A DNA stretch of 27,826 bases, taken from NCBI GenBank assembly GCA_041640655.1, contig JBEPZV010000033.1:1-27826 (forward strand). The letters run 5' to 3'. Under the pieces are notes generated by a model, which was not told where the DNA came from, made no database searches, and was given only the letters and a program-made list of their open reading frames with translations. Numbering within the stretch: the stretch's first letter is position 1; each line of letters begins with the position of its first letter. Source of the stretch: a bacterium (GTDB lineage Bacteria; Acidobacteriota; Blastocatellia; HR10). Positions 312 to 7,783 of this stretch are shown piece after piece. The position numbers and the translations under genes are program-made.

Positions 312-566
312 AGGCCTTCCCCTTCCCGATGGAATCATGCCCGTAATTACGCTGATGCGCGCTACGAAGTTTCAAGAGATCGCCAGCCACCCGCGCGAGC
401 GATCGCTCCCTCCACCTCGCGAAGGCAGAGCGAGACGCCCCGGCGGCCGCACAACGGGGGAGATCGAAATCCAGGACTCGCCGCTTGAGCCTCACCCGAT
501 CACCTCAGCTTGAACACTCGCATCGCTCGCGTGCTCACGTGCATCGCGAATTCGCGCGATAGCGTA

Positions 567-1439
567 TCACACCGATGCTGCAGAAGCAACCCAGGCCCTC
601 ACGCGCGCGAGATTGCGCCGATCGTCCTCGAGCGACCGCCTCGGCGTTTCGAGGATGAACGAACGCGCGGGGAAGAGCGCACCACTGACGATTCGGCGAA
701 AGGCCTCCGCGCCGATGTGCCCCTCGCCCACGTGCCAATGCCGATCCACGCGCCCGCCGCGCGGCACGCGCGTATCGTTCAGATGCAGGACATGCACGCG
801 CTCCATCCCGACCGTTCCCCGTATCTCGGTGAGCATCCGGGCGAGCCCCGCTTCGGTCACCAGATCATACCCCGCGGCGAACGCATGCGCGGTGTCCACA
901 CAGACCCCGATCGGCACGTCCTCCAGCTCATCCAAGAGCGCGGCCAGATGCTCGAATCGCCATCCGATCTGATGCCCCTGACCCGCCGTGTTCTCCAGAA
1001 GAAGGCGCAGAGCGCCCATTCGCATCCCCCGCACCGCCCGCCGAATCGCGCGCGCGCACGCGCTGATCCCCTCCTCCAGAGAGCAACCACGCGCGCTCCC
1101 CGGATGGACGACGAGATAATCGGCCCCCAACCGAATGGCGCGTCGAATCTCCTGCCGGAAGGCGCGAACGGATCGTTCGCGCACTGCGGGATCCACCGCC
1201 GCGAGATTGATCAGATAGGGCGCGTGAATGATGATCGGGTCGAGCCCCAACCGCTCGCGCTCTCGACGAAACGCCAGGACCTCTGCCCGTGCGAGAGCGC
1301 GCGCTCTCCATCCGCGAGGGTTCCGGGAGAAGAGCTGCACCGTCTGGCAGCCCAGTTCGGCCGCCTCCCGCAGCGCATGGGCCAGCTCTCCGGAGATCGA
1401 GGCGTGTATGCCGAGGCGAATCCCGTCCTCTGCGATCAT
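567..1439 (-). CDS. nfo: Endonuclease IV (AP endonuclease 2)
   Basis: Motifs GIHASI, QLFSRNPR, HAPYLINLA, VVHPGS, LENTAGQG, DTAHAFAAGYD, HLND, DRHWH and ILETP. Confidence 0.95.
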   Translation of the reverse strand: MIAEDGIRLGIHASISGELAHALREAAELGCQTVQLFSRNPRGWRARALARAEVLAFRRERERLGLDPIIIHAPYLINLAAVDPAVRERSVRAFRQEIRRAIRLGADYLVVHPGSARGCSLEEGISACARAIRRAVRGMRMGALRLLLENTAGQGHQIGWRFEHLAALLDELEDVPIGVCVDTAHAFAAGYDLVTEAGLARMLTEIRGTVGMERVHVLHLNDTRVPRGGRVDRHWHVGEGHIGAEAFRRIVSGALFPARSFILETPRRSLEDDRRNLARVRAWVASAASV

Positions 1440-1442
1440 GCC

Positions 1443-1601
1443 TCACCGCACTCCAGGCGGCCGCGTGTCGCTGGCTCTTGGCCGATCCTCGGCGCACGAG
1501 GGCCGCCCGAGTCAAGTCGGCACGCCCAACCGAGGAAGAACATACCGCATGAGGAGGACGTACCCGATCGCGAGAAGGACGAACGACAGAAGGTCTGTCA
1601 T
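1443..1601 (-). CDS. Small single-TM protein; 29 aa to UGA at 1514-1512, or 52 aa if that UGA is read as selenocysteine
   Basis: GAGGAG RBS 8 nt before ATG 1601. Translation MTDLLSFVLLAIGYVLLMRYVLPRLGVPT*LGRPSCAEDRPRASDTRPPGVR*. The second stop (1445-1443) lies 3 nt from the nfo ATG. Confidence 0.6.
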
Positions 1602-1725
1602 CCGGCTGCTCCTCTCATCGTTGTCGCGCGCCCGTATACCCCCTCACCTTCGGCGCCGAGGCGCGAGGACACCGCACGCCCCTCTTTCGTGGTCGTGCGC
1701 TCCTCGGCGCGCAGGCGGATCACGT

Positions 1726-2142
1726 TCACTCTGCCGTCTCCAGCGGCCGCTTCACGCTCTGTCGCACCGTCGAGACGATCTGCTCCAGCAGCGTCCCGGG
1801 CAGGAAGACTTCCGCCACGCCCAGGGCCTTCAGCTTCGGAATATCCTCCTGCGGGATGATTCCGCCGACGAAGACGACGACATCCTGTAACCCCTTCTCC
1901 CGCAGCAGCTGCATCACCCGGGGGACGAGCGTCATGTGCGCTCCGGAGAGGATGGAGAGGCCGATGACGTCCACATCCTCTTGGAGCGCGGCCGTGACGA
2001 TCTGCTCCGGCGTCTGCCGCAGCCCCGTGTAGATCACTTCCATGCCCGCATCGCGCAAAGCCCGCGCGACGACTTTGGCGCCTCGATCATGCCCGTCCAA
2101 TCCGGGCTTCGCGATGAGGACTCGAATCTTTCGTTCTCCCAT
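1726..2142 (-). CDS. icmB: Cobalamin-binding small subunit of acyl-CoA mutase (IcmB-like)
   Basis: B12-binding motif [10 protein letters not shown] (DxHxxG), SILSGAH and VGGIIP; directly downstream of the large subunit. Confidence 0.9.
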
Positions 2143-6741: not shown

Positions 6742-6819
6742 CGGGGCGTAGCTCAGCCTGGTGAGAGCGCACGGTTCGGGACCGTGAGGTCGGTGGTTCA
6801 AATCCACTCGCCCCGACCA
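6742..6819 (+). tRNA. tRNA-Pro (anticodon CGG)
   Basis: Acceptor stem CGGGGCG/CGCCCCG, D arm GCTCAGCCTGG, anticodon arm CACGG-TTCGGGA-CCGTG, GTTCAAATCC T loop and encoded CCA. Confidence 0.97.
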
Positions 6820-7676: not shown

Positions 7677-7680
7677 CGGT

Positions 7681-7754
7681 GCTCCCGTAGCTCAGTTGGA
7701 TAGAGCGAGCGCCTCCTAAGCGCTAGGTCGCAGGTTCGATTCCTGCCGGGAGCA
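7681..7754 (+). tRNA. tRNA-Arg (anticodon CCT), CCA not encoded
   Basis: Acceptor stem GCTCCCG/CGGGAGC, anticodon arm AGCGC-CTCCTAA-GCGCT and GTTCGATTCC T loop. Confidence 0.95.
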
Positions 7755-7783
7755 TTTTCTCCTATCGGCGGATAAGGATGTCC

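Follow-up and report, generated by a model that had tools for sequence, protein, structure and literature searches.

A 52-residue membrane protein with an in-frame UGA, very probably a selenoprotein, and its uncatalogued family in Acidobacteriota and a second bacterial phylum

The window analyzed here, i.e., a 27,826-nucleotide stretch of an acidobacterial contig (JBEPZV010000033.1), carries on its minus strand a small gene at positions 1601..1443, which comprises 52 codons when its in-frame UGA is read through. A Shine-Dalgarno sequence, GAGGAG (1614..1609, minus strand, as read from the sequence), is located 7 nt ahead of the ATG start codon (1601..1599), and similar purine-rich stretches are present upstream of the ATG in most of the loci of 22 relatives described below. 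According to the ORF translation, codons 1 to 29 (1601..1515; MTDLLSFVLLAIGYVLLMRYVLPRLGVPT) encode an N-terminal transmembrane helix and the motif M-R-x-V-L-P-R-x-G-V-P-T. They are followed by the UGA (1514..1512), whose reading as selenocysteine (U30) is based on the TGA of homologues, on Cys-containing homologues and on the selA, selB, selD and tRNA-Sec genes of the genome. Beyond the UGA the frame remains open for 22 codons (1511..1446; LGRPSCAEDRPRASDTRPPGVR), the product of which begins with LGRPSCAEDR, where the cysteine is residue 36, and continues as a variable hydrophilic tail. Translation and locus comparison identify the Cys36 codon, TGC at 1496..1494, as the partner of U30 in a U-x5-C pair (position +6), while a SECIS-like hairpin with comparative support, GCCGA-GGA-UCGGC, occupies positions 1493..1481 and starts 18 nt past the UGA. 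The 52-codon frame is terminated by a TGA at 1445..1443, 3 nt ahead of the ATG of its downstream neighbor, an nfo-like endonuclease IV gene (567..1439, minus strand; Pfam PF01261, AP_endonuc_2, E 1.5e-51). Both subunits of methylmalonyl-CoA mutase are encoded upstream according to Pfam, the upstream neighbor being the B12-binding small subunit (1726..2142, minus strand; PF02310, E 8.6e-28). An earlier, sequence-only reading of this region had listed the ribosome binding site, the 29-codon ORF, the UGA, the 22 further open codons, a cysteine six residues past the UGA and the end of the readthrough frame 3 nt before nfo (ATG at 1439), all of which are indeed present on the minus strand.

An AlphaFold2 model of the 42-residue core, based on the alignment of these relatives, predicts a helix spanning residues 2-24, with a pLDDT of ~91 over residues 1-20, while the remainder following the helix is a poorly defined, low-confidence turn. 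From the positive-inside rule we infer an N-out, C-in topology, since acidic residues precede the helix while R19 and R24 lie after it. In metatranscriptome data, one run contains contigs over positions 1243-2400, one of which connects the small gene with the beginning of nfo. A contig that spans 1243-1617 and carries two differences documents no more than presence in an RNA library, as such contigs reveal neither strand, transcript ends nor translation; two further RNA runs of the same study gave no match to the region. A plus-strand open frame of 449 amino acids (510..1859) lies antisense over nfo and the small gene, and is a shadow frame of a kind that is common in GC-rich DNA and that is also found in the loci of relatives. 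The window furthermore harbors genes for tRNA-Pro (CGG; 6742-6819, plus strand) and tRNA-Arg (CCU; 7680-7755, plus strand). It is the conservation of the whole arrangement in relatives, rather than the sequence of the window alone, which indicates that the arrangement exceeds chance.

A search of 61 genomes of the window's class, using the 52-residue readthrough form as query, returned 23 rows at E <= 0.011 from 22 genomes, all with an in-frame TGA and an alignment that continues beyond it. From these, 22 loci were extracted (alignment A1; a second match in one genome, G026, being without a locus). In all 22 an ATG is located 29 or 30 codons ahead of the TGA and the frame stays open for 17-36 codons after it; they share the sequence M-R-W/Y-V-L-P-R-x-G-V-P-T before the TGA, possess a cysteine at +5 or +6 in 20 cases, and are invariant at positions M1, P23, G26, T29 and U30. 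A profile derived from A1 was searched against 401 genomes of the window's phylum, including one marked unpublished (G083), which is not a carrier, and matched in 114 of these with 115 rows, of which 103 were flagged as TGA. Among the twelve rows flagged as 'none', eleven have a TGA directly past the aligned part, and the twelfth (locus L059 of genome G398) represents a Cys form with TGT at the U position, continuing as C-MSGAC-KV. In a second phylum, i.e., that of a Planctomycetales MAG, 20 of 201 sampled genomes matched, 19 of them flagged for an in-frame TGA, the remaining one being a Cys form; because carriers are related to each other, the counts in both phyla overstate independence.

Reading 65 Sec-type loci codon by codon showed that the U position is TGA in each of them, as opposed to TAA or TAG, a pattern which the sequence-only reading had named as a check, whereas the terminal stops of the extended frames are a mixture of TGA (38), TAG (17) and TAA (9), with one frame running off its locus. 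The Thr codon preceding the UGA varies (ACC in 34 loci, ACG in 19 and ACT in 12). At least 17 open codons follow the UGA in all 65 loci; the other two frames of this GC-rich DNA are also often open, with at least 15 open codons in 53 and 40 of the 65, respectively. The first cysteine after the UGA is found at +5 in 37 loci and at +6 in eight (45 of 65 together), and its codon alternates synonymously between TGC (41) and TGT (17) when all first Cys codons are considered; the retention of open frame and second cysteine constitutes the coding conservation past the UGA that had likewise been proposed as a check. The far tail beyond the hairpin varies among relatives in both sequence and length. 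The U-x5-C pair described from the window holds for the window's genus, while U-x4-C is the usual spacing in the family as a whole. Since a cysteine is absent from the tail in seven of the 65 loci and lies 11-26 residues away in a further 13, mostly from a second subfamily, the U-x4-C pair cannot be the whole story. This second subfamily comprises 18 loci (L075-L092) that display U-[AG]-V-P-x-P-x-G-x-R after the UGA, and in most of these the cysteine is 11-26 residues off or absent.

The same profile was searched against 1.84 billion cluster representatives, and yielded 1305 matches at E <= 0.001. Among the best 150 of these 1305, 65 proteins end exactly at T29 and one ends as GVPS, while position 30 is occupied by Cys in 62, mostly within T-C-MSGAC, by Trp in 17, by Gly and Leu in two each, and by Ser in one. 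The [U/C]-x4-C spacing also occurs in the Cys forms of this set, in which no Cys-at-U homologue of the second subfamily was encountered. Because the W and G forms retain the hairpin-encoded residues of the Sec forms, they are read as products of a gene caller that translated the TGA under another genetic code, which would fit with one 90%-identity cluster that contains both 52-aa W forms and 29-aa stumps. All clusters examined bear the source name 'hypothetical protein'; an odd member among them is P0156, a 492-aa 'hypothetical protein' of a Chloroflexia MAG that clusters at 90% with 29-aa stumps. Cys at the UGA position, another of the proposed checks, is therefore documented by the 62 representatives as well as by L059 and four further Cys-form loci (L095-L098). 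In two of the latter, L095 and L096 from Bryobacterales MAG records, the U position is TGC and a hairpin-like sequence persists at the SECIS position, a putative relic which points to Cys having replaced Sec recently; nothing comparable to this hairpin is present in the Cys form L059.

A 29-aa protein of identical sequence has been recorded publicly from six contigs, and a word-indexed protein search retrieved only the window's own stump and one relative with 97% identity. The suggestion that the gene is invisible to gene callers therefore needs to be narrowed: the 29-aa stump has been called publicly, and it is the extension that has been missed. In Pfam and NCBIfam no family was found for the stump, the readthrough form, the 22 Sec forms or 15-24 Cys, W and other forms. 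At E <= 10, the 29-aa and 54-aa forms of the window's protein and 15 relatives matched no selenoprotein model of NCBIfam, the only matches being to unrelated models at E >= 0.049, far below their cut-offs. An Rfam scan of positions 1380-1700 at E <= 10 produced only three chance-level matches, and the ESM Atlas contained one unnamed cluster (score 0.85), which adds nothing.

The sequence-only reading had assigned the SECIS role to a hairpin beginning right after the UGA (CUCGGGCG/CGCCGAG). This hairpin exists, with a predicted energy of -11.2 kcal/mol, but it folds no better than shuffled sequences (z -0.44, with 64 of 200 shuffles folding as well) and is not conserved, the relatives of the genus reading CUCUCGCG at this position, and it was therefore rejected as a functional element. 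The more general expectation of a stem-loop 3' of the UGA was borne out by the adjoining hairpin at 1493..1481. In the window alone this hairpin is only weakly stable (-7.5 kcal/mol, z -1.8) and has to compete against the stronger local fold just described; its support is comparative. In an alignment of 47 sequences of the main subfamily (A2, with a helix of eight pairs), 79.7% of cells are paired, seven of the eight pairs show changes on both sides, and the covariation score amounts to 0.399 versus 0.208 in shuffles (reached by none of 500) and at most 0.185 in slid-partner controls, while RNAalifold returned the same hairpin core unprompted. The hairpin of the second subfamily (alignment A3) is a different one, frequently in two tiers, whose loops read, for instance, AGGUC or CGGGC; here, 83.7% of cells are paired, changes on both sides occur in five of six pairs, and the covariation score is 0.420 versus 0.131. 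Across loci the loop reads GGA, GUC, GUU, AGGUC or CGGGC, with a G in the apical loop.

The selD gene of the window's genome (L001, G000:C2:48263-49189) is itself a selenoprotein gene with an in-frame TGA (GAG-U-ACKLSQ). This TGA is followed by a hairpin, GGACCU-GGUCG-AGGUCC, the loop of which starts at +27, and the geometry of the small-gene hairpin, with its GGA loop from +24, matches that of the selD element. The residues that follow the cysteine in the small protein (V/A-E-D/S-R) are encoded by the hairpin itself, and part of the conservation of 'EDR' is thus explained by the conserved hairpin sequence. In a relative from the same family, L034 (G007:C19), the hairpin GCCGCGGAUCGGC is kept but lies 2 nt nearer to the UGA, because of which the tail is read in another register, and lacks a cysteine.

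The Sec machinery, whose presence had been a further check, is encoded by the window's genome, in which selD (365 bits), selA (587 bits) and selB (372 bits) all score above the NCBIfam cut-offs and in which ARAGORN detected a tRNA-SeC. In the window's phylum, selA is found in 301 of 401 genomes (75%) and in 111 of 113 carriers of the TGA form, the two exceptions being G272, which has selB, and G369, which is 64% complete; in the second phylum, the corresponding values are 147 of 201 (73%) and 17 of 19, the other two carriers possessing selB. Neither gene was detected in the 64%-complete genome, the sole such case among the TGA-form carriers found. In the two Cys-form genomes that were tested, G398 (99% complete) and G439, neither selA nor selB was found above cut-off. 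These counts are consistent with the selenocysteine reading, and not proof of it: with selA widespread in both phyla, co-occurrence alone discriminates only weakly, and the genomes are, moreover, related to each other. Taken together, the comparative tests proposed by the sequence-only reading that were run support its selenoprotein interpretation.

The genomic surroundings of the gene differ between lineages. The setting between mutase and nfo is limited to the eight loci of the window's own family, to which the coupling with nfo that had been proposed from the window applies; elsewhere in the gene family it does not hold, and nfo was thus rejected as a family-wide partner. Among the seven loci of this genus, at most about twelve nt separate the stop of the extended frame from the likely nfo start, and in five the stop precedes an ATG or GTG by 3 nt. 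In L030 and L036, and also in L026 and L028, a gene of 62-70 aa for a YgaP-like_TM protein (PF11127) begins directly where the extended frame ends; in the former two, the stop overlaps the ATG as ATGA. Such an abutting stop is in keeping with ribosomes continuing past the UGA, and makes a selenium-dependent coupling to the next gene conceivable. In other loci the next gene is at least 20 nt away or on the opposite strand, and no downstream partner is common to the family. A DUF302 protein directly adjoins the gene in 11 of 46 loci, and a YgaP-like_TM gene is located within 1.5 kb in 13 of 59. Other recurring neighbors include ArsR, OsmC, Usp, TauE, an ArsP_1 permease, OEP (outer-membrane efflux), Redoxin, thioredoxin, DsrE, YeeE-type Sulf_transp, rubrerythrin with prismane, and TerB, the common thread being redox, sulfur/selenium/tellurium and metal stress.

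Two candidate relationships involving YgaP-like_TM were rejected. A seemingly shared, frame-shifted downstream ORF ('cluster 14') proved to be the shadow of a real YgaP-like_TM gene, such neighbor genes matching PF11127 at E 3e-15 to 5e-13. Homology of the small protein itself to YgaP-like_TM had been suspected from its G-x-x-T ending, but PF11127 was matched by none of the 22 Sec forms (at E <= 10) and by none of 24 Cys forms (at E <= 1).

Based on these comparisons, it is highly likely that the in-frame UGA at 1514..1512 is decoded as selenocysteine, and the region 1601..1443 on the minus strand very probably represents one gene encoding a 52-residue single-pass membrane selenoprotein. At the level of sequence, all of the features by which bacterial SelB/bSECIS recoding is recognized are present, and the family is very probably one of genuine, uncatalogued selenoproteins, decoded by a known mechanism. 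In the proposed sequence of events, ribosomes would start at the ATG at 1601 and synthesize the 24-residue transmembrane helix and the LPRLGVPT turn, upon which SelB with Sec-tRNA(Sec) would be recruited at the UGA by the hairpin at 1493..1481, with its G-first apical loop at +24 nt. Following insertion of Sec, translation would proceed past Cys36, along a tail that is charged and probably disordered, until the stop at 1445..1443, while failure of Sec insertion would release the 29-residue helix alone. The U-x4/5-C pair, positioned at the cytoplasmic face of the membrane, may then cycle between selenol/thiol and selenenylsulfide, or may bind soft metal or chalcogen species.

The simplest alternative, namely that the UGA is an ordinary stop, that only a 29-residue membrane peptide is made and that the conserved downstream hairpin has some other task, for example in stabilizing the mRNA or controlling the next gene, is considered very unlikely. 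It could account for the 29-aa product given by public gene callers on six contigs and for the 65 of the best 150 representatives that end at T29; the true stops of these loci, too, are most often TGA (38 of 64), and the tail past the hairpin is poorly conserved. However, the codon is TGA in 65 of 65 loci, as compared with a 38/17/9 mixture at the true stops, and the Cys forms continue in the same frame to a conserved second cysteine, whose codon in the Sec-type loci changes synonymously. Moreover, the Cys forms tested reside in genomes without selA and selB, and the TGA forms in genomes with these genes. Readthrough without selenocysteine, in which a near-cognate tRNA would insert Trp, Cys or Arg with stimulation by the hairpin, would equally explain a conserved downstream frame, and the identity of the inserted residue as Sec is deduced here from comparison. 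Even so, this explanation is regarded as the least probable of all, and extremely so, given that the hairpin shares its place and G-first loop with the selD element of the same genome, that the carriers possess Sec-specific genes with a single, 64%-complete exception, and that the natural alternative residue is Cys, the usual counterpart of Sec.

A third possibility accepts Sec insertion but considers the UGA and hairpin to be mainly regulatory, such that selenium would gate ribosomes onto the next gene (nfo in the window, YgaP-like_TM elsewhere) and the peptide itself would matter less. In its favor are the 3-nt distance from the stop to an ATG or GTG in five of seven genus loci, the overlap of the stop with the ATG in L030 and L036, and a tail whose variable sequence and length are reminiscent of a spacer. 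Against this, the next gene of other loci is at least 20 nt off or on the opposite strand, without a partner common to the family, and the Cys forms keep C-x4-C although they have no recoding step, which argues for selection on the peptide itself; a mainly regulatory role is thus judged improbable, if slightly less so than an ordinary stop. A broader proposal would combine both aspects: a phylum-spanning group of ~45-70-residue selenoproteins, with Sec at the cytoplasmic end of the helix, would double as a selenium-dependent switch, giving a full-length redox-active form and delivery of ribosomes to the abutting gene when selenium is available, and a bare 29-residue helix when it is not. As part of this same proposal, the family would have been overlooked because gene callers terminate at the UGA and short ORFs are removed from catalogues. 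This combined scenario is speculative, and we consider it unlikely, though somewhat less so than a purely regulatory role.

Returning to the reading of the family as membrane selenoproteins, a tentative function can be proposed from the redox, sulfur, selenium, tellurium and metal thread among the neighbors: a selenol/thiol pair tethered to the membrane would help, with varying partners, to handle redox, reactive-sulfur/selenium or metal stress. This is possible rather than probable, and amounts to a guess, as the neighbors differ between lineages and none is universal. If the selenoprotein reading is correct, the selenoproteomes of two large environmental phyla have been undercounted, the gene being present in about a quarter of the genomes sampled from one (114 of 401) and in about a tenth of those from the other (20 of 201); more than 1000 metagenome sequence clusters belong to the family, and hundreds of 29-aa 'hypothetical proteins' would be stumps of longer genes. 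It would also point to a methodological blind spot, in that selenoprotein discovery misses microproteins, and would make a membrane-surface selenol available for study, with Sec form and natural Cys form side by side.

A literature search (covering Acidobacteria selenoproteins, SECIS, small membrane proteins, DUF302 and motif strings) retrieved no description of this family. In the parts of the deep-Sep study consulted, the single Acidobacteriota genome used for testing is reported to contain no new selenoprotein gene, and its Table 3 presents nine new families, with no comparable small membrane peptide among them (PMC12013277). BSepDB, as far as its consulted sections describe, searches for known families only, and ORFs need to be at least 200 nt long to pass its ORF-prediction step (PMC13326102). 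A 2026 inventory lists 119 prokaryotic selenoprotein families, with no small transmembrane T-U-x4-C entry among them (PMC13188914, Table 1). It is the family, absent from Pfam, NCBIfam and this inventory, that is new, the decoding mechanism being already known.

The small redox-motif selenoproteins of that inventory, i.e., the dual CXXC motif small protein OS_HP3, the UGSC-containing protein and the LULAxC-motif protein TsoA (PMC13188914), resemble the present family in being short, in exchanging Sec and Cys within a Sec-Cys motif, and in having a function inferred as redox or metal binding. The present proteins differ from these in their spacing, which is U-x4/5-C and not UxxC, CxxU or U-x3-C, and in their architecture, with a transmembrane helix at the N-terminus and without a thioredoxin-like fold; the model for the nearest motif of the inventory, LULAxC (TsoA, NF045695), was not matched by any of 17 family proteins at E <= 10. 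The YgaP-like_TM/DUF2892 proteins (PF11127) are likewise small membrane proteins with a conserved cysteine near a G-x-x-T/K end, but the present family has one helix rather than two and is not a member. SELENOK and SELENOS are small single-pass membrane proteins that carry Sec near the C-terminus, in a disordered cytosolic segment, and that depend on a eukaryotic 3'-UTR SECIS. They are alike in outline by analogy only, Sec in the present proteins directly following the helix, and to our knowledge no sequence relation is to be expected.

The closest parallel is bacterial SelB/bSECIS recoding, the prototype of which is E. coli fdhF, where a UGA is followed by a stem-loop with a G in its apical loop. 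The features in common are the in-frame UGA, a stem-loop within ~20 nt with a G in the apical loop, the existence of Cys homologues, the presence of selA, selB, selC and selD, and an equivalent element in the selD gene of the genome. What sets the present family apart is a very short hairpin core, with 5-9 bp and a loop of 3-5 nt (GGA, GUC or GUU), within a gene so small that the hairpin fills much of the remaining frame and dictates the residues which follow the cysteine.
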